The notes under the pieces were generated by a model that was given only the letters and a program-made list of their open reading frames with translations, searched no databases and was not told the DNA's origin. Shown here piece by piece: positions 12,916 to 63,532 of a DNA stretch of 64,000 bases; the first letter of the stretch is position 1, and each line of letters opens with the position of its first letter. Position numbers and translations under genes: made by a program. The stretch is from an uncultured delta proteobacterium. Lineage in GTDB: Bacteria; Desulfobacterota; Desulfomonilia; UBA1062. The stretch is taken from contig CAWKAM010000009.1 of NCBI GenBank assembly GCA_963847605.1, positions 12,028 through 76,027 on the forward strand, given 5' to 3'.

Positions 12916-12945
12916 TGTGCAGGTTTCTCCCATGAGGGGTGTCAT

Positions 12946-13944: not shown

Positions 13945-13949
13945 TCATT

Positions 13950-15113: not shown

Positions 15114-15133
15114 AAGGGGTGGAAGAAAACCGC

Positions 15134-15847: not shown

Positions 15848-15850
15848 ATC

Positions 15851-17176
15851 ATGCATTACCATGATATGCGCCGCCGGTCCGTCCAAGCCATATGGCATCC
15901 CTATACCGAGATCACTTCCTTCGAGCGGACCGAGTTTCCCATCATCGACAGGGCCGAAGGCTGCACACTCTACGAAATGAACGGCCGCGCATTGCTCGAC
16001 GGCATATCCTCATGGTGGTGCGTGAACCTGGGGCACAGCCACCCGAGGTTGGTACGGGCCATACAGGAACAGGCCGCACGCCTGCAGCACACGCTTCTGG
16101 GAGGCATGTCGCATCCCCTGGCCATCGAGCTGGCTGAGCGCCTCTCCCTTGTCGTCCCTTTCGGCCTGGGCCATGCCATGTTCGCAGCCGACGGTTCCAT
16201 GGCCGTAGAGGCAGCGCTCAAGATCGCCCTGCAGTACTGGACCAACCGTGGGGAGGCAGGCCGTACACGCTTCATCGCCCTGAAGGATGGATACCATGGC
16301 GACAGCCTGGGCGGTATCGGCGTGGGCTACATCGATACCTTCCATAAACCGTTCGGCCCTGCCGCCACGCCGTCGTGGCGGGCGATCTCGCCTCACTGCG
16401 CCCGTTGCCCCTTAAGCCTTCGACCCGGACGATGCGGCATCGAGTGCTTTGACTCGATGGCCGAGCTGGTTCATGAACATCACTCCGGGTGTGCTGCCGT
16501 GATCGTCGAGCCGCTCTGCCAGGCTGCTGCAGGGATGCGCATCTACCCTGCAGAATACCTGCGCCGCCTGCGCGAGCTTTGCGACGAGCACGGCCTCCTC
16601 CTCATCGCCGACGAGGTAGCAGTAGGTTTCGGTCGCACCGGGGCCATGTTCGCCTGTGAGAAGGCAGGCATCAAACCCGATATAATTACCCTGGGCAAGG
16701 GGCTGACCGGAGGTATGCTGCCCATGAGCGCTACGATGGTCACCGATGAGATATACGACACTTTCCGCGCCGACGGCGAGCTGACGCGAACCTTTCATCA
16801 CGGCACCACGTTCTGCGGTAACCCGATCACCAGTGCCGTTGCCCTGGCCGCGCTTAAGGTCTATGAAGAGGAACAGGTCATTGAGCGTCTGGCCGGCCCT
16901 GCAAGTATCCTTGAGGACGGCATGGGCCGTCTCGCAGTCCTGCTTGAAGATTCTCCCATGCAAGCGCTCGGGATGATTGCGGCCGTCGAGATCAAGGATT
17001 CGGCAGGTGGGACCTCCCGCGCCCGTGAAATAGTACGCCGGGCTTACGAGCTCGGCCTCTTCATCCGCCCCCTGGGGCCCACGATTTACCTATGGCCCCC
17101 GCTCAACATAGGCGAGTCGGATCTACGGAACATGATCGATATCCTGTTGGATGCGGCCCGAGCGCATCATGGATGA
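15851..17176 (+). CDS. bioA: Adenosylmethionine-8-amino-7-oxononanoate aminotransferase
   Basis: Class III aminotransferase, 441 aa, with 'TLGKGLTGG' PLP-lysine region. Confidence 0.9.
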   Translation: MHYHDMRRRSVQAIWHPYTEITSFERTEFPIIDRAEGCTLYEMNGRALLDGISSWWCVNLGHSHPRLVRAIQEQAARLQHTLLGGMSHPLAIELAERLSLVVPFGLGHAMFAADGSMAVEAALKIALQYWTNRGEAGRTRFIALKDGYHGDSLGGIGVGYIDTFHKPFGPAATPSWRAISPHCARCPLSLRPGRCGIECFDSMAELVHEHHSGCAAVIVEPLCQAAAGMRIYPAEYLRRLRELCDEHGLLLIADEVAVGFGRTGAMFACEKAGIKPDIITLGKGLTGGMLPMSATMVTDEIYDTFRADGELTRTFHHGTTFCGNPITSAVALAALKVYEEEQVIERLAGPASILEDGMGRLAVLLEDSPMQALGMIAAVEIKDSAGGTSRAREIVRRAYELGLFIRPLGPTIYLWPPLNIGESDLRNMIDILLDAARAHHG

Positions 17177-29109: not shown

Positions 29110-31008
29110 TCAGCTGATGAGGGATACGACTGTTTGGGTGAGATACTTGGGATTACCCTCCTTGGGCAGCCAGATATTAACCTGTGTAGAAGGCCTCTTC
29201 ATCTTGGCCATCCATGCCCCTATCTGCTCGGGCTTAATGGAGATGCAGAAGAGCTCGTTCCATGTATTCATAAAGAGCACATCCAGCTCACGTATAGAAT
29301 GCAGACTGTCAGGGCATTCAATGTTTGCGACAATAACCACGTGCCTGGCGTATTTGTCTTCCATAAGAGATGAACGGTCAAGGCCGATGGAGCTGGCATC
29401 CGGGATCAGCGCGTTGAGCCTCCATAACAGAGATTGAATGTCGAACAGCACCACCTTGGATGCATTGGGGATCATGTGGAAGGCGGTGGATGCATCGAAG
29501 CGTTTGTTGTAGACAAGCCATGCAAGGATCTTGGTCACCCTGTCAGATTCCATGATGGGTGCAACATCGCTCATTTCCGGAGACCGCTCGAAAATGCTCC
29601 AGATACCCTTTTTATAAACAAAGAAAAGGTCTCGATATGCGGGCTCCTTTTTCTTCACCCGCTTTTCAGACTCGATCTTCCCGTCTTTTGATACATAAAA
29701 GGCCTCAACTCTCCGCCTGAGGACCTCTACTTCAACATCCTCGTCAAGGGCTGAATGAACCATGTATGACTTGGCCCTGCGTATGAGTTGTACGGTGGCC
29801 AGTTTGAGGTATGCATGGATATCATCTCCGAACTCCCGATACTTTTCCACCCCCCATTCAGAGAATTCATTCAGCTCCTTGACGGCGTGGTAAGACCACC
29901 CCCATGACTTAACAATGTCCACCATCATCGACGATTTACCATCACGCTCCAGCTTGATAAGATCGGTGCTGCGAATATTGGGGTTCACCTTCAGGTAAAA
30001 ACACTTCCTGAGCAGATCAACCGTACGGTCATCACCCCGTAAACGGTAATAGTCCTCCACGCGGCGAAGGATTTGGTAATATGGATCAACGATGTCTTGC
30101 CCTACGGCATGGAAAACGTTTTTCTTAAGGACATCGCATAAGAGCACGTCCTTTGCCGATGTGTCCAGATAACTGGCGACAAGGGCCATCTTGAGGACCG
30201 ATTTCAGAGGATCGTCGAGTGCCTTGTGCATCTGCCACAATGCCGCCCCCAGGAGCTCTTGTTCAGGTATGGATTCAAGATTGCCGAGATCGATGATATC
30301 TTCATCATTTGAGCTGGATTGCGAATGCACTATTGTTCGCATCTTTTCATAGGTATCTTTCTCCGTCTCAGGAGATACGACCCACCAAAGCGGTACCCTC
30401 CCTTCGATGAGGGTCAAGGTACGGTAGAACTCTTCCTTAAGGATGCTCTTCAGGGCCGAGCCGGAACCCTCCTGGGATACAGAGCCGAATTTGTTGGCTT
30501 TGATATCCTTAAGGTCCATGAGGAAAAAGTGAATATCGAGAAGGTATTTACCGGCAATCCACCGCTGGATAAGCTTCAGCTTCTTTTCGAGGGACCTGAG
30601 TCTATCAGGCTCGATGCGCTTGGCATCCACCACCACCCAGATGTCATAGTCCGATTCTCTCGTCTGAGCAAGGCTACCCACCGATCCAATGGTGAATAAC
30701 CCTTCGATCTCGTGCTGCCGAGGGATATAATCCTGTATTCTCCCTAGATTGACCCTGGAGGTGAGAAGCGACCCGATGTCTCTGAATGTCTGTGAAGGCC
30801 ACTCCATGTATTTGATGCCGCATGGGCAGTCCCCATGCTCCACATAACCGGGCAGATTGGGGTGATTGATATGTATCAGCAAGGGTAATAGTTCAAGGAT
30901 GACCCGCGCACCCCCCGGGTCACACTTGTACATAATGTCCTTCTTGTAGCGGTTGTAGCTTGTAAAGGCCCTCAGACCGCTTGAAACACTTGTATCCGGA
31001 TGTCTCAT
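29110..31008 (-). CDS. cyaA: Class I adenylate cyclase, catalytic region
   Basis: 'LLPLLIHINHPNLPGY', 'GSVGSLAQTRESDYDIWVV', 'HFFLMDL' and 'RCFYLKV' match enterobacterial CyaA catalytic-domain landmarks, recalled from memory. 632 aa, so shorter than E. coli CyaA. Confidence 0.75.
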   Translation of the reverse strand: MRHPDTSVSSGLRAFTSYNRYKKDIMYKCDPGGARVILELLPLLIHINHPNLPGYVEHGDCPCGIKYMEWPSQTFRDIGSLLTSRVNLGRIQDYIPRQHEIEGLFTIGSVGSLAQTRESDYDIWVVVDAKRIEPDRLRSLEKKLKLIQRWIAGKYLLDIHFFLMDLKDIKANKFGSVSQEGSGSALKSILKEEFYRTLTLIEGRVPLWWVVSPETEKDTYEKMRTIVHSQSSSNDEDIIDLGNLESIPEQELLGAALWQMHKALDDPLKSVLKMALVASYLDTSAKDVLLCDVLKKNVFHAVGQDIVDPYYQILRRVEDYYRLRGDDRTVDLLRKCFYLKVNPNIRSTDLIKLERDGKSSMMVDIVKSWGWSYHAVKELNEFSEWGVEKYREFGDDIHAYLKLATVQLIRRAKSYMVHSALDEDVEVEVLRRRVEAFYVSKDGKIESEKRVKKKEPAYRDLFFVYKKGIWSIFERSPEMSDVAPIMESDRVTKILAWLVYNKRFDASTAFHMIPNASKVVLFDIQSLLWRLNALIPDASSIGLDRSSLMEDKYARHVVIVANIECPDSLHSIRELDVLFMNTWNELFCISIKPEQIGAWMAKMKRPSTQVNIWLPKEGNPKYLTQTVVSLIS

Positions 31009-40710: not shown

Positions 40711-40786
<76 letters not shown>

Positions 40787-48719: not shown

Positions 48720-50300
48720 TTAGTAACTATAAGCAGCTCTTTTCAGTGTACTTATGGAAAGATACAGTACCGCATCGCTGTGGAATGGTGCGGCAAACGA
48801 CCGGGAGGCACCGCCCTCGATAGTATCGCCTGACTGTGTAATTCCTGATATGGGGTTGAGCCACTCTACATCGAGCTTCCCGGATGAATGAGAGAGGTCT
48901 ACGGTAACTTTGCCATCTTGAGGTGCATAAATCAGATATTCTTTCCCATTTTCGGCGAGACAGTATCCGGAAGAGGCCAGATCCGGCCGGGGCACCATAC
49001 CCACCAGATGAATCCTCTTGGCGAAGGTTAGCGTATACCCCATGTTCCTGCGCATGAGTTCCCATTCCGGGCTGGCTGGATCACAATAATATTCTGGAGG
49101 GTTATGAAGTACGTTCGCGTTATAAGGATCCATGAAAATCGGGTTCAGGCCCCTGAGGAAACTTTCCCATATCCACCGGTAGTCTCCGCCCATCCCCCAT
49201 AAATGGTCCGTGTCACTAATGATGATCTTTCGTCCGTCCGCCACGGGCGGATTGTCTTTATACCCGCCCTGAGAATTCGGGGATACCGCCTCAGCAGGAC
49301 TTTTAAAGAGGGCACTGTTCTCTCCTCCCGGCCATTGTGCGGTCATCCACACCGGGTGTCTCCTGCCCTTCTTCCCCTCGTAGGCATGAATGAAATTGAT
49401 CATGTGGTACTGCCACAGAGTTGAATCGCTGTGGCCTTCATTGGATATCTCCCACAATACATTATCCAGGTCATTCAATGTATCTATGACTTTTTTAACG
49501 TATTCTTCCTGCAGCTTTGTTATACGGGGCAAGTTCATGGTATGAATTTCTCGGCCGTCACCCTTCCCCAGAGGATCTCCATCGATTCCATTGATATTGT
49601 TTCTGGCATTAAACGGATGTCCTCTCCATGGGTTGTTTTCTTCGGTGAGCATTGCCCCTAAACGCACCTTTCGAAGCATCCTCCTAAGATACCATTTTAA
49701 CTTGCTGTCAGTATTTACCCCCTTGATCTCAATGCTGAAACCTTGAAACAGCATAATGGAAACATAAATGCCCTTCCCCTGTGCCGAGATCACCCGTGCA
49801 CGCAATCTGTCAAAAAATTTCTGATTGAACCTGGTAAGGTCGAATTTTGGTTTTCCATCAAGGGCTTCCCCCGGCCCGGTTCTCTCATAGGGCATAGGGC
49901 TGAACACAATCTTTTCCTTTGTGCCCTGGAACCACGCAGCATGTTCCCATACCCATAGACGGATGAAGTTGTGATTATGCTTCTTAAGAGAATCAAGGTA
50001 AGCTGCGTAATTGAAAGGAGGTGTATTTTCATCCCCTATCTCCTGGAAATTGTTCCACGTGTGCGACCCGGTCAGATAGACGGCTTTCCCTGTTCCGTCG
50101 GTAAAATATCTCGGGTTGGTAGGATTTACCGTAAGTGGTCCCATGGGTAAGACACCTCTTGTTTTGGTCAGGGTTGCCCGACTACCGGCCATCAGTTGCG
50201 TGCTATCTGCGGCCAATAGCACTAGCGCAATCAATAATATTAAGCTATAAGCCGACGGCTGCTTCACATCATTCACAATCTCAGTATCAATGCGAATCAA
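48720..50300 (-). CDS. Membrane-anchored or secreted glycoside-hydrolase-like protein (GH5-like/DUF4038-type)
   Basis: N-terminal TM/signal 'LILLIALVLLAA'. 'NPRYFTDGTGKAVYLTGSHTWNNFQ' resembles cellulase-like putative glycosidases. Family assignment is tentative. Confidence 0.45.
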   Translation of the reverse strand: MIRIDTEIVNDVKQPSAYSLILLIALVLLAADSTQLMAGSRATLTKTRGVLPMGPLTVNPTNPRYFTDGTGKAVYLTGSHTWNNFQEIGDENTPPFNYAAYLDSLKKHNHNFIRLWVWEHAAWFQGTKEKIVFSPMPYERTGPGEALDGKPKFDLTRFNQKFFDRLRARVISAQGKGIYVSIMLFQGFSIEIKGVNTDSKLKWYLRRMLRKVRLGAMLTEENNPWRGHPFNARNNINGIDGDPLGKGDGREIHTMNLPRITKLQEEYVKKVIDTLNDLDNVLWEISNEGHSDSTLWQYHMINFIHAYEGKKGRRHPVWMTAQWPGGENSALFKSPAEAVSPNSQGGYKDNPPVADGRKIIISDTDHLWGMGGDYRWIWESFLRGLNPIFMDPYNANVLHNPPEYYCDPASPEWELMRRNMGYTLTFAKRIHLVGMVPRPDLASSGYCLAENGKEYLIYAPQDGKVTVDLSHSSGKLDVEWLNPISGITQSGDTIEGGASRSFAAPFHSDAVLYLSISTLKRAAYSY

Positions 50301-50403: not shown

Positions 50404-51558
50404 TCAATCAGCCATTGATTGCATCCAGTGCGTAAGGACCCTCTCGCGCCCGCTGCCTTCCGCAGCAAGCGCCTTTGCAAGGTCCGCTTCGATGGCCACT
50501 TGCGCCTCTCGACCATGCAAATACAACTGCCAGAGCGGTGTTGCATGGAGAGTATTCATCTTACCCATGGCCTTGGCTAGGGAGAGACGGTCCACCATCT
50601 CATCGTACCGTGCGATCTCTCGCTGATACGTCTCGTACAGTTCTGTCCGGAGCACATGAGAGAGAGGTTCATAGTCGCTGTATTCACCCGGCTGATGACG
50701 TTCAATACCCGTGGGTGCAGGATCGAACAGACAGAAGAGCGATACGTACCCGTCGACAATGTGAACTTCGTGCTTATTGCGAAGGAATTGCTTGGCCTGG
50801 GTTTTCTCGTCGATGCGGCATTCCTCTTCGGAGCTCCCGGCGGCTTCGTTCAGATGATAGGTGGAGTCGCCATCGAGTGACAACCACGGGCCCCATAGCT
50901 GGTTCGTATACTGGTACGGGTGCTTCGCCATACGCACGCGGGCGGTCCCTTTCACGTCGTAGCATATGTTGAACTCGGTTCGGGAGTTGTATGACATCTT
51001 GAACACCGGCTCCCCGTCCTCGTTTCCGGGGAGACCGGCCACGTCGAACATTGTGGTGCGAAACCAGGAGACGGGATTCCCGGATCTAGATAGAAGAATC
51101 GGGTCATGATGCAGAAAGATACGGCGGCTCAAATACTGGGGGGTGAGGATCCACCGAAGTAACTGAGATCCCGAAGCACAGGCCGCAAGAAATGTTTCGT
51201 CGCGAAGCAGCAGCCTTTTGCCGCGGGTCTGTGAGGCAGTTGGACTCGATACGCGCAAGACTTCGGTCTCCGGTTCCGCTTCGAGGGCGGTCTCCAGCCC
51301 GGGCGGAAGATAGAGGTGCACGCCTGCCTCCAGGTGAAGCGGTTGTTTGCCGTCACCCGGAACGTATAGGTTCCCTCTTCCTCGAAGAACGCTGATGATG
51401 TGGCCGACGCTTGCTCCCGGTGTGAGGCGCCCGGCCTCGGAGAACCGGATACGATCGACGTCCAGCCCCTCGGGATGTATGTCGTGCTTCAGGATTTGAG
51501 CACGGGCAAAGGGCTCTCCTGATTCACGACGCCATTCGTTCTTGATGAGCTTTTGCAT
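50404..51558 (-). CDS. Hypothetical protein
   Basis: 384 aa, no motif recognised. Embedded in the polysaccharide locus. Confidence 0.4.
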   Translation of the reverse strand: MQKLIKNEWRRESGEPFARAQILKHDIHPEGLDVDRIRFSEAGRLTPGASVGHIISVLRGRGNLYVPGDGKQPLHLEAGVHLYLPPGLETALEAEPETEVLRVSSPTASQTRGKRLLLRDETFLAACASGSQLLRWILTPQYLSRRIFLHHDPILLSRSGNPVSWFRTTMFDVAGLPGNEDGEPVFKMSYNSRTEFNICYDVKGTARVRMAKHPYQYTNQLWGPWLSLDGDSTYHLNEAAGSSEEECRIDEKTQAKQFLRNKHEVHIVDGYVSLFCLFDPAPTGIERHQPGEYSDYEPLSHVLRTELYETYQREIARYDEMVDRLSLAKAMGKMNTLHATPLWQLYLHGREAQVAIEADLAKALAAEGSGRERVLTHWMQSMAD

Positions 51559-51860: not shown

Positions 51861-53444
51861 TCATTTAAGCGCGCTCAACTTTTTTCTATCTATCTTTCCG
51901 GATGAAGTTGTAGGCAGGGAGTCGCGGAATTCAATAATCTCCGGGATCATGTACTTCGGCAGTTGTCTGGAACAATACTTCAGAATGTCTTCCTTTTCGA
52001 TCTTACCTGGTGTCAATGGAACTATGACCGCCGAGATTCTATTCCCTATTAGCTCGTCCGGGATCGGGATGATAACGGCATTCTTAATATCCGGATGATT
52101 GCACAGGACAGTTTCAATTTCTCCGATCTCAATCCTGTACCCCCGGCTTTTTATCATATGATCTTTCCGGCCAAGGAAAACATAGTTTCCATCAGTATCC
52201 AGGCGGACCAAATCGCCGGTTCTGTAAACTATTTCATTCAAGTCAGGCCTGAGGGGGTTTTTCACAAAGCACTCTTGACTTTTTTCAATATCGTCCCAAT
52301 ATCCTGCTGCAACCGAAGCAGCCCTCACATATAATTCTCCTTTTTCTCCAGGCTTTTTAACCTTTTTTCCCTCTTCGTCCAGGGCAAAAATCTCGAAATT
52401 CGGGAATGATCTACCTATTGGAAGTACTGCTGCGTCATCCGATGGAATTTGTTCAACCCGATAATACATTGAAGAATTCGCTTCCGTTTGTCCGTATATA
52501 TTGTAAAATTTCCCTCCGGGGACTGCTTTCTGGACTCGCCGCAGATATTTTATGGGGAATACCTCACCTGCGAACAGAATCAATCGTAGAGAAGAAAAAT
52601 CATACTTATCCAGATTCGTAAAGTTCGCCAAAAGAGTGAGCGCCGACGGCACCGAATTCCATACCGAGATTTTTTTCTTCTCTATGTATTCAGCCAGCTG
52701 AGACGGAAAGATGGACGTGCTCTCTGGGATGATGACAACAGAAGCCCCTGCCTTGAATGCAACGAAGATGTCAAACACGGACATGTCAAAGTGCAGGGGG
52801 CAGATGTTGGAAACCCTGTCATTCGTTTCTATTCCAAAAAAGTCATGCACCGAATTCACAAATGTCAAAGAGTTGCGATGCGATATCATGACCCCTTTGG
52901 GATTGCCTGTTGACCCGGAAGTAAAGAGGATATACGCTAAATCCGAATCTATCGTGTTCATGCATGGAGTCTCACTCCTTGCAGCCTCCCTCATCTGATG
53001 CCAGTCAATCAATTTCACGGATCCGAGTGACCCGGAATCTGAATCCAAGCCATTCATGACAAGAACACTTTCCAAAGGCGATGATCCGGGAAACGCCCGC
53101 TCTACATTTGTCAGCTTTTCTTGAGAAGTTAACAGCAACTTAATTCCACATCTGTTGACAATATAACTGAGACGGCTGAGCGGGCACATGGGATCTATGG
53201 GAACATACGTGGCCCCTGCTTTCAGGATCCCCAAAGCCCCGGCTATTGAATTTATGCTCCTGTTCATGTGTATCCCGACCCGTGCCCCTCTTTCTATGCC
53301 GATTTCTGAGAGACAATGAGCCAGTTTGTCGGTTTCCTTCTCCAATTCGGCATAGGTTATGGACTTGTCTTTAAAAGCCAATGCCTCCTTTTCCGGATAT
53401 TTCGCCGCACTCTCAGACAATAATTGGTGCAGTAGGTAGACCAT
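51861..53444 (-). CDS. AMP-dependent ligase, DltA-like carrier-protein ligase / adenylation enzyme
   Basis: 'YILFTSGSTGNPKGVMISHRN', 'FDMSVFDIF' and C-terminal 'SSGKIDRKKL' closely parallel DltA landmarks (from memory). Confidence 0.8.
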   Translation of the reverse strand: MVYLLHQLLSESAAKYPEKEALAFKDKSITYAELEKETDKLAHCLSEIGIERGARVGIHMNRSINSIAGALGILKAGATYVPIDPMCPLSRLSYIVNRCGIKLLLTSQEKLTNVERAFPGSSPLESVLVMNGLDSDSGSLGSVKLIDWHQMREAARSETPCMNTIDSDLAYILFTSGSTGNPKGVMISHRNSLTFVNSVHDFFGIETNDRVSNICPLHFDMSVFDIFVAFKAGASVVIIPESTSIFPSQLAEYIEKKKISVWNSVPSALTLLANFTNLDKYDFSSLRLILFAGEVFPIKYLRRVQKAVPGGKFYNIYGQTEANSSMYYRVEQIPSDDAAVLPIGRSFPNFEIFALDEEGKKVKKPGEKGELYVRAASVAAGYWDDIEKSQECFVKNPLRPDLNEIVYRTGDLVRLDTDGNYVFLGRKDHMIKSRGYRIEIGEIETVLCNHPDIKNAVIIPIPDELIGNRISAVIVPLTPGKIEKEDILKYCSRQLPKYMIPEIIEFRDSLPTTSSGKIDRKKLSALK

Positions 53445-53694
53445 CCTTATAACCTCCCTAAGAAATAATTCTGCTCATCGAACGTGTTTGGGGGAAACTG
53501 GACGTACTATCTGACGGGGCAATGCATGCCTCTGTTTGGTGGAAACCACTGAAAATCAAATTGAGTGGATGTGATTAATAAATTTTAGATGCGGCCACAG
53601 CCGGGCTCCGTGCCCTACTCTACCCCATTTGTCTCATATGGATGTCACCTTTGCTTCATTATCCCGGGTTACCAAGACCACCATTAATACTCTT

Positions 53695-56600
53695 TTATTG
53701 GGCCGGCTGTAAGGTGGCATACAAGGACCAATGAACCGTGGCGCTTGTGGGCGATGTGGAGAAGGTGCCGGGCATATCCGCGTAGGTGTAGCTGTAAAAT
53801 CTGGCCGATCCTGTGAGCGCATCCCTGAAACCCAGGCTGTTGCTTGATGGGAGATAGGCCAGCCAGTATGTACCCGCCGGCAGCGACACTTGTGAAATTA
53901 CATTCGCAGTGTTCCATCCGCTTACCGGTGTAAATGAGGCTGTCCGGGCTTTGAGAGTTCCAGGGCCACCGTTGGGTCCGGTGGCGTCATAGATACCCAG
54001 CTCCAGGCTGCCAGCCGCGGTCGTGACGTAGAAACTCATGCTCACTACAGTGCCGGTTTGCCCGAGGCTCGCCTGCTGGGCAATAAGCCCATTGCCATTC
54101 CCATTATCGTTGGTGCTCAGGATGCTGGTTTCTCCAATGGTAAAGGAACTGGCTGCCGTGACGGTCACGCTGGCCGTTCCGCTCACACCACCGCTCGCGG
54201 CGGTAACCGTGTACGGCCCACCCGCCGTGCTGCCTGCGGTGAAAAGGCCACTGCTCGTGATCGTTCCACCACCACTCACCGTCCAGCTGAAGCTGGGCTG
54301 CGGCACCATGGCGTTACCCGACTGATCATTCGCCGTCGCGGTGAACTGCTGTGTTCCATTCACCGCTACACTGGCCGATGACGGTGTTACGCTGATGCTG
54401 GTTAGGATCGAGCCCGTCCCGGCGAAGCTCGCCGCGATCGTATGGTTGCTGCTGACACTGCTGAAGGTATAGGTACCCACCGCTCCAACCGATGCCCCGT
54501 CAACGGTAACGGCGCTGATGGCATATCCGCTGCTGGCCGTGATGGTGAAGGTCTTGCTTGACCCGCTACTCACCGAGACGCTCCCCGAGGGGGAGATAGA
54601 CCCGCCCGTGCCTGCAGTGGCGGTAATGGTATAGGTCTGGGCAGCAACAAAGCTCGCCGCGATCGTATGGTTGCTCCTGACACTGCTGAAGGTATAGGTA
54701 CCCACCGCTCCCACCGATGCCCCGTCAACGGTAACGGCGCTGATGGCATATCCGCTGCTGGCCGTGATGGTGAAGGTCTTGCTTGACCCGCTACTCACCG
54801 AGACGCTCCCCGAGGGGGAGATAGACCCGCCCGTGCCTGCAGTGGCGGTAATGGTATAGGTCTGGGCAGCAACGAAGCTCGCCGCGATCGTATGGTTGCT
54901 CCTGACACTGCTGAAGGTATAGGTACTCACAGCTCCCACCGATGTCCCATCCACGGTAACTGAGCTGATAGTATATCCGCTCTTCGCAGTGATGGTGAAG
55001 GTCTTGCTTGACCCCCCACTCACCGAGACGCTTCCCGAGGGAGAAATGGTGCCGCCTGTGCCTGCGGTGGCGGTGATGGTGTAGGTCTGGACAGCGAAGC
55101 TTGCCTTGATCGTATGTTTGGCTGTCACGTTACTGAAGGTATAGGACCCCACCTTACCCACCGATTTCCCATCCACGGTAACGGAGCTGATGGCATATCC
55201 GCTGTTCGGTGTGATGGTGAAGGTCTGATTTGACCCTGAATTCACCGAGACGCTCCCCGAGGGGGAGATGGACCCGCCCGTGCCTGCGGTGGCGGTGATG
55301 GTGTAGGTCGTGGTAGCAACGAAATTCGCAGCGATACTATGGTTGCTGGTTACGTTTGTGAAGGTATAGGAACTCACCGCTCCTACCGATGTCCCATCCA
55401 CGAGAACTGAGCTGATGGCATATCCGCTGTTCGATGTGATGGTGAAGGTCTGGTTTGATCCTCCACTCACCGATACGCTTCCCATGGGGGAGATGGAACC
55501 GCCTGAGCCTGCGGTTGCAGTAATAATAATTGACCCATGATCAGGAAACAGGCTCGTAAATGTATATGTCTGTGGCTGAACATTCGCTGCGGTTTGAACA
55601 CTGCCATTAACGATTGTGGCAAATGAGACATCAAAATCCATCGTGTTTGGCCGGACTACAGTGGTCATTATTGTCGGGGCTACAATATCGGCAACTTCCT
55701 CCAGAAGATACCATGACTCCAAAGAATCCACAACTTTATCGCCGGCACTATAAAGACTGATCAGTCCATTATTCAACGTGTTGTAACGCGTGATGGTATC
55801 ACCCGATGAAGGGGGTGGGCTTATCTCAATAAAGTGATTCGTGGCTATGATTTGGTCGTAGTTGGGATTAGTATACGCGGCCCAGCGGATTAAAGCCCCC
55901 AAGATAGGAGAATTTTCAATGTAATAAACAGGATCGCTGGACCCTTGGTAGGGACTGCCGATCAGGATAATAGTCGGCGTGTAACTATATACCGAATTTA
56001 CAATAGACAGCGGTTGAGTTAAGTAACTGTCATATGTAGTGTTCTCAAGAATATAGCGGAGAGTTTCAGTTATTGGATGGAATGGTCCATTGCTGGTTGC
56101 ATTGTTGCCATTGCCTGAATTCACCATCACGACGATGCCGTCTTCGTTCATGCCCGATGTAACACCAAACCAGCCGGGCCAGCCAAAGGAAACAAGCTTT
56201 GGCATGCCGGTCGGCTCGTAGGTGATCAGCATCTGGTCTTTGAGAAGATTTCCTTGACTATCATAGGGAAAGTCATAATCTCTTGCTACAATCGTATCTC
56301 CGTTTCCAGTCGAGTTTCCCCAAACGCCGAAAGAGGAGCAGCTGAACCAATATTCAACAAAGAGGTTGAGGCACTCGATGTCCAGAGCACCGATATTTCT
56401 CCCCAGACTCGTAACATAGAGATTTTTGCCGCTGGCATTCATGCCATCCACCATGCCGCTTATTTCGTCCAGATATTGAGGGAAAAAGGTATGAACGGTG
56501 GGGATCAGGGTAAGACGATTGTTATAATCCGAAACATTGCCGTTGGCTATCACACCGATCAACCAGGTATCAATCAGGTCGCGGATCTTATCAGCCATCA

Positions 56601-56796
56601 AGTAGCCATGGGCATAACCCATCTCATAATATGAACCCCAGAGGTTGAGAACATTCTGATTGCCGACTTTCTCGAAACTGCCATTGATCGACGTTTGAGC
56701 TAAAGATTCATCTATAAAGCCATTCCCAAAAACAAGAAAACAAGAAAATAACAATAAAAGAAATGGCTTCAACACTCTCCTATGAAAAATTATCAT
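53695..56796 (-). CDS. Large secreted multidomain protein: Ntn-hydrolase (C45/choloylglycine-hydrolase-like) domain + 6 tandem 75-aa repeats + Big_2-like domain
   Basis: GGGAGG RBS and signal peptide 'MIIFHRRVLKPFLLLLFSCFLVFG'. 'YEMGYAHGY' and 'CSSFGVWG...ARDYDFP' suggest an Ntn-hydrolase Cys nucleophile. 'SISVTPSSASVAVNGTQQFTATANDQSGN' is Big_2-like. Confidence 0.6.
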   Translation of the reverse strand: MIIFHRRVLKPFLLLLFSCFLVFGNGFIDESLAQTSINGSFEKVGNQNVLNLWGSYYEMGYAHGYLMADKIRDLIDTWLIGVIANGNVSDYNNRLTLIPTVHTFFPQYLDEISGMVDGMNASGKNLYVTSLGRNIGALDIECLNLFVEYWFSCSSFGVWGNSTGNGDTIVARDYDFPYDSQGNLLKDQMLITYEPTGMPKLVSFGWPGWFGVTSGMNEDGIVVMVNSGNGNNATSNGPFHPITETLRYILENTTYDSYLTQPLSIVNSVYSYTPTIILIGSPYQGSSDPVYYIENSPILGALIRWAAYTNPNYDQIIATNHFIEISPPPSSGDTITRYNTLNNGLISLYSAGDKVVDSLESWYLLEEVADIVAPTIMTTVVRPNTMDFDVSFATIVNGSVQTAANVQPQTYTFTSLFPDHGSIIITATAGSGGSISPMGSVSVSGGSNQTFTITSNSGYAISSVLVDGTSVGAVSSYTFTNVTSNHSIAANFVATTTYTITATAGTGGSISPSGSVSVNSGSNQTFTITPNSGYAISSVTVDGKSVGKVGSYTFSNVTAKHTIKASFAVQTYTITATAGTGGTISPSGSVSVSGGSSKTFTITAKSGYTISSVTVDGTSVGAVSTYTFSSVRSNHTIAASFVAAQTYTITATAGTGGSISPSGSVSVSSGSSKTFTITASSGYAISAVTVDGASVGAVGTYTFSSVRSNHTIAASFVAAQTYTITATAGTGGSISPSGSVSVSSGSSKTFTITASSGYAISAVTVDGASVGAVGTYTFSSVSSNHTIAASFAGTGSILTSISVTPSSASVAVNGTQQFTATANDQSGNAMVPQPSFSWTVSGGGTITSSGLFTAGSTAGGPYTVTAASGGVSGTASVTVTAASSFTIGETSILSTNDNGNGNGLIAQQASLGQTGTVVSMSFYVTTAAGSLELGIYDATGPNGGPGTLKARTASFTPVSGWNTANVISQVSLPAGTYWLAYLPSSNSLGFRDALTGSARFYSYTYADMPGTFSTSPTSATVHWSLYATLQPAQ

Positions 56797-57213
56797 GGCA
56801 GGTCCTCCCTTTCCCGTAAGGAACTTCAAAGAGATCCTTGTGATCCAAATTCATAATAATACCTTGTCTCCTGTAAAACAAGCCCCTCACAAGTGCCTGA
56901 ACGAATAATGTGCGTTTATCATTTATTATAATCTACCTCTTTATATTTTATTATAAAATATATCTTTTGTCAATATTTATTTTACTATTCTTAAATCAAA
57001 ACCCTTCATAAAAGAATCTAAAATATTGAAAAGATACAATGAGAACAGTAGCCGTATTACTGATATGCACCATAATATAACGCAATGGAGGTGCCAAGGG
57101 CCGTAATTGTCCAACATAATGATTATACTTATAAATAAATCTTAACTTCGATTGCCGATTATTGGGTAAGTGAAAAGAAATGCCCATTTTCCGTAAGGGA
57201 TTCCCAATATTTA

Positions 57214-58359
57214 TTAAAGCCCCAAGTACCGGGCGATGATATTCCTCTGTATCTCAGAGGTCCCGGAATAGAGAGTACTTCCAATGGAATCTCGTAAATC
57301 GCGTTCCAATTCATATTCAGTGGTATAACCGTAACCCCCGTGAATCTGAATGGCATCAAGGCAAGACTTTATCCATGATTCACTCAGATAAAGCTTTGTG
57401 ATGGCAGCCTCCATGGTCGCCTTGCCATGGGTCTTCTTCATCCAGGCCAGTTTGTATAACATCAGTCTGGCCGTTTCCATTCTCACCTTCATGTCAACGA
57501 TCTTATTGGCAACAGACTGATACTTACCGATTGATTTACCAAATTGCTTCCGTTCCTTGGAATATTTTATACATCTCTCCAGTTGCCTTTCCATGCCACC
57601 CAGTAAACTGGCCAAAATGCAACTCCTCTCCCATTCTATTGAGTCATCGAATATTGCCGCACCATTGCCTTCTTTTCCAAGACGATTCTCTGCGGGAACT
57701 TTGCAATCTTCAAGAATCAATTCGGCAAAAGGAGCCGTTCGTAAACCCATTTTTCCTATGTCCTTGCTTACACAAAAACCAGGATAATCTCTTTCAATAA
57801 TGAATGCAGTCACACCCATAAATCCCTTCCGCTTATCTACAGTAGCAAATACTACAAATACATCGGCCAACGGCGCCATGGTGCAGAACGTTTTTGTCCC
57901 ATTTAAGATATAATAATTACCGTCCAACCTCGCTGTTGTTCGAAGGCTGTAGGCATCGGAACCCGAGTCCGGCTCGGTAATGCTGTCAGCTCCGATCAAT
58001 TCGCCACTGCAAAGTCTAGGTAAATACCTGTTTTTCTGTGCTTCGGAACCAAACTTCAATATCGGCATTTGAACGGACCACATCTGGCCGTTGATTGCGA
58101 ATATCAACCCACTGTCTTTGCATCCATATCCCAATCCTTCCATGAGGAGCAGGGTGCTCATGATATCAGCGTTGTTTCCTCCGTACTGTTCCGGAAACGC
58201 AGAGCCCTGTATTCCGAAATTTGCACATTTTTTCCAGAGTTCACGGGGGAAGACAGCATCTCTGTCCCTTTCAATGACCCCATCGTTGAGCGCCTTCTGA
58301 GCAAAACGGATAGCCCTTTCCTTGTATTCTAACTGCTCTTTGCTAAATTCAAAATCCAT
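57214..58359 (-). CDS. Acyl-CoA/acyl-ACP dehydrogenase family protein
   Basis: 381 aa. ACAD fold with C-terminal 'IYSGTSEIQRNIIAR' signature. Confidence 0.85.
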   Translation of the reverse strand: MDFEFSKEQLEYKERAIRFAQKALNDGVIERDRDAVFPRELWKKCANFGIQGSAFPEQYGGNNADIMSTLLLMEGLGYGCKDSGLIFAINGQMWSVQMPILKFGSEAQKNRYLPRLCSGELIGADSITEPDSGSDAYSLRTTARLDGNYYILNGTKTFCTMAPLADVFVVFATVDKRKGFMGVTAFIIERDYPGFCVSKDIGKMGLRTAPFAELILEDCKVPAENRLGKEGNGAAIFDDSIEWERSCILASLLGGMERQLERCIKYSKERKQFGKSIGKYQSVANKIVDMKVRMETARLMLYKLAWMKKTHGKATMEAAITKLYLSESWIKSCLDAIQIHGGYGYTTEYELERDLRDSIGSTLYSGTSEIQRNIIARYLGL

Positions 58360-58605: not shown

Positions 58606-58857
58606 CTACTTATTCCCCATTTTCTGTTCGACAAACTTGACCATGTTATTAAGAGTTTGAAAGTTCTCTGGGACGATTTCATCGTCAGTGACAGCTATAC
58701 TAAAGGTTTCCTCCATAAAAAGTATCAACTTCATGATCCCTAAAGAATCAATAATTCCCTTCTCAAGAAGATCTTCATCAGGTGTCAGGGATTTTTTATC
58801 AAGATTGACAGCAATCTCATTAATCAAAAATCTTTCAAGATCTTTTATAATGCTCAT
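58606..58857 (-). CDS. Acyl/aminoacyl carrier protein
   Basis: 83 aa. 'GIIDSLGIMKL' phosphopantetheine-attachment Ser. Confidence 0.85.
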   Translation of the reverse strand: MSIIKDLERFLINEIAVNLDKKSLTPDEDLLEKGIIDSLGIMKLILFMEETFSIAVTDDEIVPENFQTLNNMVKFVEQKMGNK

Positions 58858-59027
58858 TGGAATATCACCTCACTTTTTATATATTCGTAGATATACATTT
58901 TCTCAATAATTATTGTTACTATATTCCTCTTATAATTTAAGCATATTCAATAACTTGTACTATCCTCAATTAAGATGTTTTCCTCTTGATTCATTTCTAA
59001 TCTAAAAGACGCAACAGCCATTATGAC

Positions 59028-59921
59028 CTACACACCTTCAGGAAAGATTCCAAAAGCTTCAACATACTGACTTGGACGCCACGACGGTCCTCTTACCATG
59101 AGAATATCTATACAATAGAGTTTAAAGCCCAACTCTTGAAGTGCTTTAACAAGCATAAAATCTCTAGCCATGACACGCGTTCGACAAGATCGCTTTTTGA
59201 AAGTTTCTAGTGCCTGTCGAAACAAAAACTCAGCTTCCTCTTCTCCTTCGGCAAGCAAGGGACCGAGCTGAACCCCTCTCGGTCCGGGAAGACATGCCAG
59301 ATAACCTTTGATATGCGAGTGACTTCGATAAACAAAAATCTTGCCCCACCGGGAAAAATATCTGAGGTCTGTTCGTCGGTCAAATTTACTTCGCGGAAAG
59401 TCATATGCACAAAGCTCATCGAGATCATTTGCGCTTAATTCGTTTACACTGCTGCAAAGATCCGGATTCCGTTCAACTCCCTTATCCAGGATTAAATCCA
59501 TTAGAGTTGCCACTGGCATATACTTGAATGAATATAGGAAAGAAAAGGTTTCAGGATTGTAGGCCTCCTGGATACATCTCGTACTTTGCAACCCTTCCAC
59601 CCTCTTGAAACAAGCATTCATGAGTTCCCGTCCAACACCACCGCCTTGAGAATAAGGATCAATGGCAAGAGGTCCATGACCTCCATTTTCACCCCTTGGG
59701 TTCAGACAAATTATTCCTACGACCCGATCCCCCACCTCAGCAACCAAACGTACACACGGTCCATGGTGGAGCATTGCCCAGGCCCAGGACTTTCCTTCAT
59801 TGACACTCTGTATTTGCGGGGCATAACCATATTTCAATGCATTTTTATTAAACGCTTCATGAAAAATTTCTCCTACCCGGTCTATATCCGCCTTAGTCAT
59901 ATCACGTATTTGAGGCCTCAT
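59028..59921 (-). CDS. GNAT-family N-acyltransferase
   Basis: AAGGAG RBS before the internal Met. 'VGIICLNP...GPLAIDPYSQGGGVGRELM' acyl-CoA-binding GNAT core. Confidence 0.65.
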   Translation of the reverse strand: MRPQIRDMTKADIDRVGEIFHEAFNKNALKYGYAPQIQSVNEGKSWAWAMLHHGPCVRLVAEVGDRVVGIICLNPRGENGGHGPLAIDPYSQGGGVGRELMNACFKRVEGLQSTRCIQEAYNPETFSFLYSFKYMPVATLMDLILDKGVERNPDLCSSVNELSANDLDELCAYDFPRSKFDRRTDLRYFSRWGKIFVYRSHSHIKGYLACLPGPRGVQLGPLLAEGEEEAEFLFRQALETFKKRSCRTRVMARDFMLVKALQELGFKLYCIDILMVRGPSWRPSQYVEAFGIFPEGV

Positions 59922-60137
59922 CGTAATCTCCTTAACGTTACATAACAATTAACCTCAATCTGCTTGGAAAAACCTTTAAGACCCTCAATCTTTAAAACTT
60001 TGAACACACGCCCCATAAATATATTGCTTTGATCGATCACAAACAGAAAACTCCTTTCTGTTTAGACACCTATCAGTTTAGTCCGAAAGTCATTCTTTGA
60101 ATAATTTGATGAGTAACGTATTATCTTTGTTCGTTTT

Positions 60138-61172
60138 TTAGACTTTATATCCACGCAGGAAACTATTTGTGTTAAGATAAGTCATAGCGCAGAATTCTAT
60201 GTTTCTGAAGCCAGCTTCTTGGAACCAACGTGTAGTTTCCACCTGAGAGTGGTTCTTTCCTTCAGCTGTAACACAAAGCATCATAAGATCCAGGAAGATC
60301 GGCCATCTTCCGCCAAGACGATCGTCCCGTAGATATTGGGCCTGAATAACCAGTGACCCGCCATAATTAATGGAGTTATATAAGCGCTTAATGAGCATGC
60401 GGCTTGCATTCTCCCCTAGTCCATGCAGTGTGTTAGAGACAAGTATCATATCATACGAACCGGGAATATCATCTTTCAGAGCATCCAATGGCAGATATTG
60501 AATTTTGTTCTTGAGGGAGTATCTTGTCTGAACCTCTTTTGCATTTTCCAGAACCTCAGAGAGGTCCAGAAGATAGAGCTCTAAGTCTGGGTTATACATA
60601 CCTAAATGAAAGGCATATGTTCCAGGACCACAACCAAGATCAAGTAACGACTTACATCTATCCGTGCTAAGGAATTTGGCCAATTCCTTTCCCCGCAGTG
60701 AAGCATAGTTGTGCATACCCAGTGTGAATTCCCGCGTACTTTCTTTGTCACCCCTGACATGCTTTGACGGATCAATGGTTGGTCCAGATTTTAATATTGC
60801 TTCATCAAGTTTTGATAGTGCTGCATAAAAGATTTCCAAACTGCTGATCCAGTTGCCGATATAATGTTCACCGGCAGAAGGTGACAATACTGTGCGACAC
60901 ATTGGTGCTATGCTGAAATTGATGCCATCTGCGGATTCAAGTAGTTTCAAAACAACCCCTGCATTCAATAATCGCGAAAGTGTCTCCGGCCGTGTATGCA
61001 ACTCCTCGGCAAGCTCATGCAAAGTTTTACTACCATTGTCTATACGTTCAAAAACTTTCAGCTTTAACAAAGCAAACAAAATACTGGACTGATAAAATCC
61101 CTCTGCGATAGAGAGTACTGCAATTTGGTTTCTTTTAACTGTCAGGTCCGATATTGGTTCGTCTTGAGACAT
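60138..61172 (-). CDS. SAM-dependent O-methyltransferase (dimerisation domain + class I MTase)
   Basis: 'LLDLGCGPGTYAF' motif I. N-terminal winged-helix-like region. Confidence 0.75.
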   Translation of the reverse strand: MSQDEPISDLTVKRNQIAVLSIAEGFYQSSILFALLKLKVFERIDNGSKTLHELAEELHTRPETLSRLLNAGVVLKLLESADGINFSIAPMCRTVLSPSAGEHYIGNWISSLEIFYAALSKLDEAILKSGPTIDPSKHVRGDKESTREFTLGMHNYASLRGKELAKFLSTDRCKSLLDLGCGPGTYAFHLGMYNPDLELYLLDLSEVLENAKEVQTRYSLKNKIQYLPLDALKDDIPGSYDMILVSNTLHGLGENASRMLIKRLYNSINYGGSLVIQAQYLRDDRLGGRWPIFLDLMMLCVTAEGKNHSQVETTRWFQEAGFRNIEFCAMTYLNTNSFLRGYKV

Positions 61173-61186
61173 AGTACCCCCACTAA

Positions 61187-62188
61187 TCATTCAGTTAAGT
61201 TTTCCCATCGCTTGTTTCGCGTATTCCAGCGTCGGCCACTCCCAATCTCATATATGCTCTGTGTCGGGTTCTCTCCGATTGCGACTTCCAGTGTATCGAT
61301 CAGTTTATCCATCACATCAACATCATTGCCCGCCTCATTACCAATGTTGCGAATTGGAACTCCCCAGTCCAGCACTATAGTTCCATCACTCTCCAGAAGA
61401 GAAACGCAGCTAATGATTGGGCATTTAGCTAAACGAGCTAACTGTGCAGCCCCTGTTGAAAACACTCGGTTTTTATGTCCCGCAAAGGGTCTTTCGTAAG
61501 ATCCTGTCGGAGTTTTATGCCAGAGCGCGTCAACGGCCATGTAAACGACATTTTCTCGTTCGTAGAGCCGCTTATAAAGTGTCCTGGCAGTACGCAGGTC
61601 AGATCCCATAAATACGATTTCAATATCCCTTTTCCAGCAAGAAGATAAGGCCTGCAGCAATGCCCCATATTGAATACGAATACGCAGATCATAAAGGCTC
61701 CGAATTCGCTTCCGAGGTTCACTACCAACATTGATAGGGTGACCATAAGTGACGCCGGGAGAAAATATACTCAGACCAGGTTCTTTAGGAAAATGCGCAC
61801 TGGCTATGATGTACGAATCACCAGACTCCCTCAGACTGTTTATACCATCAACATTTTTCTCAACGATTCGCCAGTTGGACGGATCTTCGCGCCGGTAAAT
61901 CAAACGTTTAAGCTTGACGAAATCGCTCAGTGGCCTGGCCAGCCAGCCCCAGGCGAGAAAGAACGATTCAAGGCGGCCCTTTCCGAAAGCGCTTCGCATC
62001 TGCCAATATGCATGAAAGCCCGGTACTGGTAAAACCGCCAGTGATAGTGCAAGGGCATCGGCGATTCCCAGGGCCCATTTTCTCGGCAGTGCATACGCAG
62101 CCGGTGCAAGGATGAATTGCATACTCACAATGCGTATGAACTGTTCGACGTGGTAGCTTATCCGGATTATCTGTTCTCTCATATTCAT
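61187..62188 (-). CDS. Putative LpxL/HtrB-like membrane acyltransferase
   Basis: N-terminal hydrophobic anchor. 'YIIASAHFPKEPGL' resembles the lipid A late acyltransferase H-F/G-x-WE region. Weak call. Confidence 0.35.
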   Translation of the reverse strand: MNMREQIIRISYHVEQFIRIVSMQFILAPAAYALPRKWALGIADALALSLAVLPVPGFHAYWQMRSAFGKGRLESFFLAWGWLARPLSDFVKLKRLIYRREDPSNWRIVEKNVDGINSLRESGDSYIIASAHFPKEPGLSIFSPGVTYGHPINVGSEPRKRIRSLYDLRIRIQYGALLQALSSCWKRDIEIVFMGSDLRTARTLYKRLYERENVVYMAVDALWHKTPTGSYERPFAGHKNRVFSTGAAQLARLAKCPIISCVSLLESDGTIVLDWGVPIRNIGNEAGNDVDVMDKLIDTLEVAIGENPTQSIYEIGSGRRWNTRNKRWENLTE

Positions 62189-62341: not shown

Positions 62342-63532
62342 TCACTCAATGACCGCCTTGGGATACAGATTAACAACACCCTGCACATCCCTCTCCGATC
62401 TTATCTGCAGTGTCGCGGCAGGATTCCGCGTATCATACATTTTCTGAATGTCATATCGGTAGATATGCGCACCGACATGGTATGTCCCGGGCACAAGGTG
62501 AAGATTCAACTCAAACGTCACCTTCTTTTTTTCGCCGGGCTCCAAAGAAAATGTTGTGTTATTCAGCCGCTGGGTTGAGGTGTCGAATACATGGTAATTG
62601 TCGTCATTTTTCATGAGCACCGTTACCGATAGATTTTTGCAATTCACGTTTCCCGTGACTTCGACCTCTAAGAAAACTTTCTCTCCGGTCTCAAACAAGA
62701 GTTCTTTATTTCTTTCACCCTTGAGAATCACATTGGAAATATATGCCTCTTTCCTCTCATCTGCTTCACTGACCCATTCTCTGGGATTCATATAATTGTG
62801 GACGACATCAACAGACGGTCCATCACTGATCTTTTTACCGTGATCAAGCAAGATGCATCGATGGCACAGGTCCGTTACAGCCCGCAGATTATGGGACACG
62901 AACAACAACGTCGTACCGCTGCTTAGAACCGATTTCATTTTCTCTATACATTTTTTTTGAAAAGAGTAATCACCTACACTGAGCACCTCATCCACAACGA
63001 GTATCTCCGGGTCGACATGAGCTGCAACAGAAAACCCAAGCCGTGCGTACATTCCGGATGAATAACGTTTCACCGGGGTGTCTATGAAATCAGCCAGACC
63101 GGAGAAATCCACAATCTCATCAAATTTCTTTATGATCTGTTCCTTTTTCATACCGAGTATTGTTCCATTGAGAAAAATGTTTTCACGTCCGGTCAGATCC
63201 GGGTGGAAACCCGCGCCTACTTCGATGAGCGCTGATAACGTACCGTTTACTGTTATATTGCCTTTTGTAGGTTTCATGATACCGGTCAACAGTTTGAGCA
63301 TTGTGCTCTTTCCTGCGCCGTTGGGCCCGATGATACCTAAGGCTTCTCCTTTGTTGACTTGGAATGAGATATCATATAATGCCCAGAATTCATTTTCTCC
63401 CAGAGAAGATTCTTTCCGGCCCCTGAAAAGACTGCCGAACATGGCGGGTATGAGATCCCGCAGGGAGTCGTACAATTGACCTTTTCTGAATTTCTTATAC
63501 ACACGATCCATTTCGAATGCAAAACTGGACAT
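62342..63532 (-). CDS. wzt: Polysaccharide/O-antigen ABC exporter ATP-binding protein with C-terminal glycan-binding domain
   Basis: Walker A 'GPNGAGKST', signature 'YSSGMYARL', Walker B 'ILVVDEVLSVGD'. Carries a ~150 aa C-terminal beta-rich extension. Confidence 0.8.
   Translation of the reverse strand: MSSFAFEMDRVYKKFRKGQLYDSLRDLIPAMFGSLFRGRKESSLGENEFWALYDISFQVNKGEALGIIGPNGAGKSTMLKLLTGIMKPTKGNITVNGTLSALIEVGAGFHPDLTGRENIFLNGTILGMKKEQIIKKFDEIVDFSGLADFIDTPVKRYSSGMYARLGFSVAAHVDPEILVVDEVLSVGDYSFQKKCIEKMKSVLSSGTTLLFVSHNLRAVTDLCHRCILLDHGKKISDGPSVDVVHNYMNPREWVSEADERKEAYISNVILKGERNKELLFETGEKVFLEVEVTGNVNCKNLSVTVLMKNDDNYHVFDTSTQRLNNTTFSLEPGEKKKVTFELNLHLVPGTYHVGAHIYRYDIQKMYDTRNPAATLQIRSERDVQGVVNLYPKAVIE

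Follow-up and report, generated by a model that had tools for sequence, protein, structure and literature searches.

The 64,000-nt stretch analysed here (the window) covers positions 12,028–76,027 of contig CAWKAM010000009.1 from an uncultured delta proteobacterium (GCA_963847605.1; Desulfobacterota, Desulfomonilia, UBA1062). Its reverse strand carries a gene for a large exported protein in which a hydrolase domain of the C45 family is joined to a repeat stalk, and this gene lies among amino-acid activation genes in a polysaccharide locus. The mechanical open reading frame (ORF) reported in a first-pass annotation of the window does exist at 53695–56829 (-) and would encode 1044 amino acids (aa) from a TTG codon at 56829. 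However, the true start is likely the ATG at 56796, giving a gene of 1033 aa (53695–56796, -): a GGGAGG ribosome-binding site lies 8 nt upstream of this ATG, the publicly recorded product is exactly 1033 aa, and a 76% identical homologue (P0284) begins at the same point. At about 1030 aa, the protein is large and not, as first described, giant. Residue numbers below follow the ORF (TTG) numbering; output from the alignment of 20 relatives counts from the ATG and is converted by adding 11. The gap upstream of the gene is 385 nt long and AT-rich (31% GC), and holds a promoter-like site (TTGACA-17-TAAAAT; 56945–56973, -) that agrees with 11 of 12 consensus positions and is recognised by consensus match only.

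The catalytic domain (residues 46–430; 55540–56694, -) was delimited using profiles, an AlphaFold (AF2) model, and Foldseek, and is a C45-family N-terminal nucleophile (Ntn) hydrolase domain. The NCBIfam profile NF040521 (C45 family autoproteolytic acyltransferase/hydrolase, C45_proenzyme) matched residues 65–356 with 121.5 bits against a cutoff of 85 (E = 4.5e-35), and the Pfam family AAT (PF03417) matched with 28.3 bits against a cutoff of 23.2. The motifs that had suggested such a domain in the first place, YEMGYAHGY (residue 68), CSSFGVWG (residue 164), and ARDYDFP (residue 182), are genuine family landmarks. Of the 43 homologues found for the N-terminal domain, 20 were aligned; in these, G-Y-x-H-G and C-S-S...R-[ND]-x-D-F show little or no variation, and both align to the founding member of the family, acyl-CoA:isopenicillin N acyltransferase (IAT). 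The likeness to choloylglycine hydrolases claimed alongside did not survive: the Pfam search of the protein returned no match to the CBAH profile (C59, choloylglycine hydrolase) at E ≤ 1, which places the protein in C45 instead, and enzymes of the CBAH type resemble the model at the fold level only (template modelling (TM) score 0.36–0.53). The C45 domain family itself is already known and is annotated automatically.

Searches of the PDB with a single sequence, either the whole protein or the region around the cysteine, returned repeat or spurious matches only, and a family profile was therefore needed. With the profile of the 20-relative alignment, the sole match was the Penicillium IAT (PenDE, MEROPS C45; 2x1c/2x1d, E = 7e-7). 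The AF2 model of the domain, built with an alignment (predicted local distance difference test (pLDDT) 87; predicted TM score 0.86), has the predicted alpha-beta-beta-alpha sandwich of Ntn hydrolases and is closest to IAT, which was the top Foldseek match in the PDB (2x1c, E = 5e-16, TM 0.75), followed by acid ceramidase, NAAA, bile-salt hydrolases, and penicillin V acylase. With profile and model both positive, the protein thus has an Ntn family match as well as the predicted sandwich, the two features on which the first-pass annotation had staked its assignment.

Cys164 (codon at 56338–56340, -) is the predicted nucleophile, and autoprocessing would occur between Ser163 and Cys164. This residue is invariant in the 20 relatives and opens a beta-strand (152–158) of the AF2 model. 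Forced alignments with both hmmalign and mafft put IAT Cys103 on Cys164, pair Asp186 with IAT Asp121, and pair Thr330-Asn331-His332 with the TNH of IAT; on either side of IAT residues 85–112, the residues agree with the profile-search alignment. Other positions that are invariant or nearly so among the relatives are Ser166, Trp170, Arg183, Asp186, Asn228, Glu305, Thr330-Asn331-His332, and Arg348. Profile, predicted fold, and aligned nucleophile together support a C45-type Cys-Ntn enzyme. While IAT belongs to the same family by profile and its nucleophile, Asp121, G-Y-x-H-G, and TNH all have counterparts here, the two share only ~15% sequence identity, and the residue before the nucleophile is Ser in this protein and Gly in IAT. 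Acid ceramidase and NAAA (C89), whose internal cysteine is exposed by self-cleavage and which act outside the cytosol, and bile-salt hydrolase and penicillin V acylase (C59) share the alpha-beta-beta-alpha fold and the cysteine chemistry (Foldseek E from 1e-13 to 1e-7). As a group, they differ from the window protein in a TM score of only 0.4–0.66 and the unmatched CBAH profile; furthermore, the C59 cysteine stands at or near the N-terminus, whereas Cys164 sits behind an alpha chain of ~120 aa.

The protein had been called secreted, and its sequence bears this out. Residues 12–45 (56695–56796, -) form a Sec-type signal peptide, MIIFHRRVLKPFLLLLFSCFLVFGNGFIDESLA, with a putative cleavage site before the following Q. 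This region comprises positive charges, a hydrophobic helix, and an A-x-A-like cleavage site, and the hydrophobic segment, with HRRVLK before it and ESLA-Q after it, is the sole one in the protein. The AF2 model begins with a helix (9–24) followed by a disordered linker, and all relatives aligned have an equivalent N-terminus. The C-terminal halves of these relatives are interchangeable surface modules (CARDB, DUF11, Big_9, cadherin-like, and type IX secretion system (T9SS) sorting domains), the T9SS sorting domains being carried by distant relatives. From these features, the catalytic domain is almost certainly outside the cytoplasm. A lipoprotein reading, considered due to an L-F-S-C within the signal peptide, was rejected, as this cysteine is not conserved in the relatives and the A-x-A-type site is.

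Given an extracytoplasmic catalytic domain, the enzyme cannot draw directly on carrier-protein or CoA thioesters of the cytoplasm, and this bears on the name of the Pfam family, acyl-CoA:6-aminopenicillanic acid acyltransferase. Taken together with the position of the gene between a dehydrogenase and an adenylation enzyme, that name could point to an IAT-like acyltransferase that is cytoplasmic or faces inward and moves an acyl group from a carrier protein or CoA to a sugar. Such an enzyme is hard to reconcile with a positively charged N-terminus and single hydrophobic helix, extracellular-type domains over the rest of the protein, and relatives bearing T9SS or other surface-sorting modules; in addition, most of the gene cassettes described below lack a C45 gene yet retain a GNAT-like transferase. 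We consider it highly improbable. IAT is intracellular (peroxisomal) and uses acyl-CoA, whereas the window protein leaves the cytoplasm and carries ~600 aa of surface-type domains in addition, making acyl-CoA-dependent IAT activity unlikely at the predicted location. For the same topological reason, the acyl transfer that the first-pass annotation proposed as an alternative to trimming is unlikely to proceed IAT-style, directly from carrier protein or CoA.

The catalytic domain is followed by five tandem InlB B-repeat modules of 74–75 aa (54412–55530, -) and not by six, as first counted. Pfam Flg_new_2 (PF18998, divergent InlB B-repeat) matched five stretches (66.6 bits against a cutoff of 23.6, E = 1.9e-18), Tandem Repeats Finder reported 4.9 copies of a 225-nt unit, and a manual parse likewise gave five units. 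Repeats 4 and 5 (54412–54861, -) are 95% identical in DNA, which indicates a recent duplication. The repeat count of this stalk could differ from strain to strain or reflect mis-assembly. In L148, a strain at 96% identity, the C45 gene (8001–10226) is called at 741 aa; variation in repeat number was rejected as the cause, given that the alignment shows all five repeats kept and both ends cut. The neighbouring GNAT and PIG-L genes on the L148 contig are split as well, so the short form probably reflects frameshift error or decay.

The next domain (residues 807–893; 54151–54411, -) is Ig-like and resembles Big_2, as had been proposed, only at the borderline: PF02368 was covered over its whole length of 79 positions with E = 1e-4, but the score of 22.5 bits falls just under the cutoff of 22.8. 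An Ig-like domain of LigA also matched this region weakly (E = 0.027). The C-terminal 150 aa (residues 894–1044; 53698–54150, -), absent from the first-pass description, form a domain with no Pfam family; DUF4082 (PF13313) matched only weakly (15.2 bits against a cutoff of 28.4, E = 0.02). We detected 157 homologues of this domain at 55–78% identity, for which the domain likewise carries no Pfam annotation. Some are small stand-alone proteins, whereas in others the domain is joined to dockerin, TIG, fn3, PKD, or InlB repeats, and the lineages are as different as Paceibacterota, Anaerolineales, and Omnitrophota. From this distribution, it is probably a binding module.

With two thirds of the protein made of repeat, Ig-like, and binding-type domains, and with a recent repeat duplication of the kind typical of surface proteins, the protein might be taken for a surface adhesin with an inactive C45 domain. 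The cysteine nucleophile, the Asp186 equivalent, R-x-x-D, N228, E305, and TNH are nevertheless invariant or nearly so among relatives at 25–60% identity, and we give such an adhesin very little credence. The wider exported C45 family comprises ~1500 cluster representatives in an exhaustive search, of which just 45 fall at E ≤ 1e-30, so the clade of this enzyme is small. Close homologues in a genome scan were mostly from Geobacterales-type metagenome-assembled genomes. The PADLOC defence models gave no match.

The genes on both sides of the C45 gene had been named an acyl-CoA dehydrogenase (ACAD) and a ligase. Genes are indeed found at these positions, though they are better described as a flavoenzyme resembling prolyl-carrier-protein dehydrogenases (57214–58359, -) and a stand-alone amino-acid adenylation (A) enzyme (51861–53444, -). 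The flavoenzyme scored 458 bits with the PigA model (cutoff 500) and 398 with RedW (cutoff 650); its top PDB match was the prolyl-ACP (acyl carrier protein) dehydrogenase 4irn, at 478 bits compared with 348 for the next, and its PDB relatives are AnaB, Bmp3-type, and prolyl-PCP (peptidyl carrier protein) dehydrogenases. The A enzyme matched TIGR01733 (381.5 bits against a cutoff of 317.4), and the best PDB match for its pocket region was PltF, the L-Pro carrier-protein ligase (E = 1.7e-27). Read off the PltF alignment, its specificity code is DMFNLAISSK, compared with DLLYLALVCK in PltF; four of the ten positions are identical and three more are conservative, while the remaining three hold smaller polar residues (N, S, and S for Y, V, and C in PltF). 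The enzyme keeps Asp235 and Lys517, which in A domains mark alpha-amino-acid substrates, and its substrate is likely a proline-like amino acid. Upstream of the flavoenzyme gene lies that of a carrier protein (PCP/ACP; 58606–58857, -) with a PP-binding domain, whose best NCBIfam matches are stand-alone carrier proteins.

Downstream of the A gene is a conserved protein of 384 aa (50404–51558, -) with no Pfam or NCBIfam match, which we take as the hallmark of the set. It has more than 600 homologues at 60–89% identity across phyla (Bacteroidota, Thermodesulfovibrionales, Nitrospirota, Omnitrophota, and others). Its predicted structure has a pLDDT of 53, with an N-terminal cupin-like barrel alone reasonably confident. 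Using this protein, we fetched 33 loci of at least 8 kb each, and found the A enzyme in 29, the dehydrogenase in 26, and the carrier protein in 25, usually amid genes for sugar aminotransferases, FdtA, and glycosyltransferases. In the loci numbered L063–L146, the 384-aa protein almost always adjoins a carrier protein, a prolyl-carrier-type dehydrogenase, and a PltF-like A enzyme. By gene content, the carrier protein, dehydrogenase, A enzyme, and 384-aa protein are a mobile four-gene cassette in the glycan loci of many phyla, which looks like an undescribed, widely transferred glycan-acylation cassette and would supply an amino sugar with an oxidised acyl group of the proline type. The trio of stand-alone A enzyme, carrier, and ACAD-type dehydrogenase is the same as in PltF/PltL/PltE, PigI/PigG/PigA, and AnaC/AnaD/AnaB. 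Those prolyl-carrier pathways sit in natural-product clusters, whereas the window trio sits in a glycan locus, includes a flavoenzyme that falls below the equivalog cutoff, and has the 384-aa protein as a conserved partner. We know of no prolyl-carrier pathway that includes a C45 enzyme.

Several further genes accompany the cassette in the window. A two-domain GNAT-like acyltransferase (59028–59948, -; Acetyltransf_1 and Acetyltransf_18), whose gene co-occurs with the cassette in many loci, is a candidate for the cytoplasmic acyl-transfer step. A small-molecule-type O-methyltransferase (60138–61190, -; Methyltransf_2 and Dimerisation domain) adjoins the cassette in other phyla too. On the other side, an exported glycosidase similar to apiosidase and DUF6298 (48720–50300, -) was identified from Pfam matches and a hydrophobic N-terminus; in the related locus L002, the glycosidase and C45 genes overlap at the end of the latter. 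The Wzt ABC-transporter ATPase (62342–63532, -; ABC_tran and Wzt_C) bears a C-terminal glycan-binding domain, which makes this a locus of the ABC-exported O-polysaccharide type, and the cluster also encodes GT2 and GT4 glycosyltransferases, a pyruvyl transferase, and a UDP-glucose dehydrogenase. Between Wzt and the O-methyltransferase lies a gene for a 333-aa membrane-type protein (61187–62188, -; 18.4 bits with the lipid A acyltransferases, cutoff 22.3), homologues of which occur in some related loci (L002, L068, L108, and L110).

The first-pass annotation placed the C45 gene inside the acylation module, and viewed from C45 this association is indeed strong. In homologues sharing at least 50% identity, the C45 gene follows the 384-aa gene in L003/L004, L006–L009, L011, L015, L111, and L126, follows the A gene in L002, and lies between the dehydrogenase and A genes in this window, L147, and L148. 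Adjacency to the cassette is therefore seen in about a dozen lineages and three gene orders; it also covers two diverged cassette types, judged from dehydrogenases at ~54% compared with 76–96% identity. Genomes with C45 domains only 76% identical still share the order ACAD-C45-A. What did not stand is full membership in the module. The C45 gene occurs in only two of the 33 surveyed cassette loci and is absent from the closely related locus L068, which makes it an optional extra rather than a member of the cassette.

By blastn synteny, L068 has 197 nt between its ACAD and A genes where the window has a 3.7-kb segment (53469–57211, -), even though nucleotide identity is 91% in the ACAD gene itself and 87% in the A gene. 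This segment is thus a presence/absence polymorphism. A mobile element was rejected as the explanation: neither direct nor inverted repeats were found at the ends of the segment, nor was a gene for a transposase or integrase. Elsewhere in L068 (77–91% nucleotide identity in shared genes), unrelated DNA replaces the segment with the O-methyltransferase and GNAT genes (58884–61185), and an extra 291-aa ORF lies between the carrier protein and dehydrogenase. On such comparisons, the glycan locus is a mosaic.

The reading we favour, tentatively, is that the C45 protein is an accessory amidase that acts after export to remove or edit an amino-acid-derived acyl group on the polysaccharide. In the cytoplasm, the PltF-like A enzyme would load a proline-like amino acid onto the PCP, the AnaB/PigA-like flavoenzyme would oxidise the carrier-bound amino acid, and the acyl group would pass to an amino sugar of a polysaccharide exported by Wzm/Wzt. 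Following its own export, the proenzyme would cleave itself before Cys164, leaving an alpha chain of ~13 kDa in complex with a beta chain, which would now start with the cysteine and use it as the nucleophile. The InlB-type repeats, Ig-like domain, and terminal binding-type domain may hold the catalytic head in the periplasm or on the surface near the polysaccharide. As an optional add-on, the enzyme would act on the exported amide, most likely by hydrolysis that trims or edits the acyl group. We favour this reading given that IAT and Drosophila Tan, the characterised C45 enzymes known to us, have amino-acid-derived amides of small amines as substrates, that no activated acyl donor is available outside the cell, and that the locus also encodes an exported glycosidase. 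The proposed logic, of an exported glycan-locus enzyme beside a glycosidase that removes an N-acyl group, is like that of the periplasmic polysaccharide de-N-acetylases PgaB, PelA, and IcaB. This likeness is one of analogy and not homology, as those enzymes are metal-dependent CE4 deacetylases of an unrelated fold and the Pfam search found no CE4 domain in the C45 protein.

Several observations weigh against a post-export amidase tied to the cassette. Most cassettes carry no C45 gene (two of 33 loci do), the close relative L068 lacks it, and distant C45 relatives (25–32% identity) show no cassette linkage. Two of the nearest homologues, L014 and L005, lie amid amino-acid and aromatic catabolism genes without the cassette, and a neighbour-joining tree without support values groups the window enzyme with them. 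With AT-rich flanks and a promoter-like site of its own, the gene need not be co-transcribed with its neighbours. On the chemical side, the A-enzyme code departs from that of PltF at six of ten positions, three of them conservative and three polar (positions 278, 330, and 331); both the identity of the acyl group and its placement on a sugar are things we infer from the gene set.

Much of this would be expected of a general-purpose exported acylase or amidase, serving in nutrient scavenging or in degrading extracellular amides, signals, or antibiotics, that has no functional tie to the cassette and owes its position to gene traffic in a hypervariable glycan island. L014 and L005 share the C45 and InlB-repeat architecture of the window enzyme, and their neighbours include genes for a 2-oxoacid dehydrogenase, an aminotransferase, an aldehyde dehydrogenase, a beta-eliminating lyase, a CoA transferase, an HpaB-like enzyme, and an enoyl-CoA hydratase, with a secreted sedolisin-like peptidase near the L005 gene. 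Such an acylase would also suit the wider family of ~1500 representatives, exported and without cassette linkage, as well as the indel relative to L068 and the AT-rich flanks with their promoter-like site. Chance would rarely, however, bring a C45 gene beside the same cassette of four to six genes in three positions, two cassette types, and about a dozen lineages, or preserve the ACAD-C45-A order while the C45 domains diverged to 76% identity. We regard a general acylase as the less probable of these two accounts, although it is the most credible of the alternatives.

A further alternative keeps the cassette linkage, which would suit it equally, but changes the reaction. In an extracytoplasmic transamidase, an acyl-enzyme on Cys164, formed from the exported-glycan amide or another donor, would be resolved by an amine rather than water, so that the acyl group is moved or the glycan is cross-linked to an envelope component. 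IAT, the founding C45 enzyme, is established to swap acyl groups through a cysteine acyl-enzyme, and its fold (as predicted) and catalytic residues are present here. Against this, there is no activated donor (CoA or carrier-protein thioester) outside the cytoplasm, none of the nearby genes encodes a candidate acceptor, and the sequence holds nothing that separates transfer from hydrolysis. We think a transamidase rather improbable, and continue to favour the post-export amidase.

In its boldest form, the amidase reading would have the cassette place a previously undescribed proline-derived acyl group (dehydroprolyl or pyrrole-2-carbonyl, possibly O-methylated) on the surface polysaccharides of many phyla, with the exported C45 enzyme as the first dedicated Ntn-type editor, removing or relocating this group outside the cell to switch surface chemistry. 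We offer this as speculation, and consider it doubtful as a whole. Bacterial C45 enzymes are, to our knowledge, almost uncharacterised, and IAT and Drosophila Tan are eukaryotic and intracellular. A literature search on bacterial C45 enzymes, on prolyl-carrier genes or pyrrole with O-antigen or polysaccharide, and on C45 with InlB repeats found nothing relevant, and otherwise only general papers on Ntn hydrolases turned up; in the literature searched, neither the exported, stalked C45 architecture nor its repeated association with a cassette of the prolyl-carrier type in glycan loci was found described. If the link between the C45 gene and the cassette is functional, it would represent a new kind of post-export glycan editing and an undescribed amino-acid-derived glycan modification across many anaerobe phyla; if it is not, the protein would be another secreted acylase. 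The cassette itself may be the more interesting object of the two. The question lends itself to direct testing, since nearly the same locus occurs in nature both with the C45 gene and in a form that lacks it.

Elsewhere in the window, a tRNA-Phe gene (40711–40786, +) sits where housekeeping genes give way to the polysaccharide locus, which is lower in GC. Genes for CarD, IspD, IspF, CysS, UvrB, a WaaP-like kinase, and an acyltransferase lie on the housekeeping side, and the 3.5 kb following the tRNA-Phe gene (39.8–43.3 kb) contains small ORFs only. UvrB falls into one cluster, at 90% identity, with proteins of Desulfomonilia metagenome-assembled genomes. A biotin-synthesis operon (11998–17176, +) begins with a PALP enzyme, followed by BioB-, BioF-, BioD-, and BioA-like genes, and this block has 58–62% GC compared with 40–52% for most of the window. 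A 647-aa ORF (5895–7838, -) had no Pfam match at E ≤ 1e-5. Finally, a gene for a class I (enterobacterial-type) adenylate cyclase is present at 29110–31008 (-) in what is apparently a Desulfomonilia genome.

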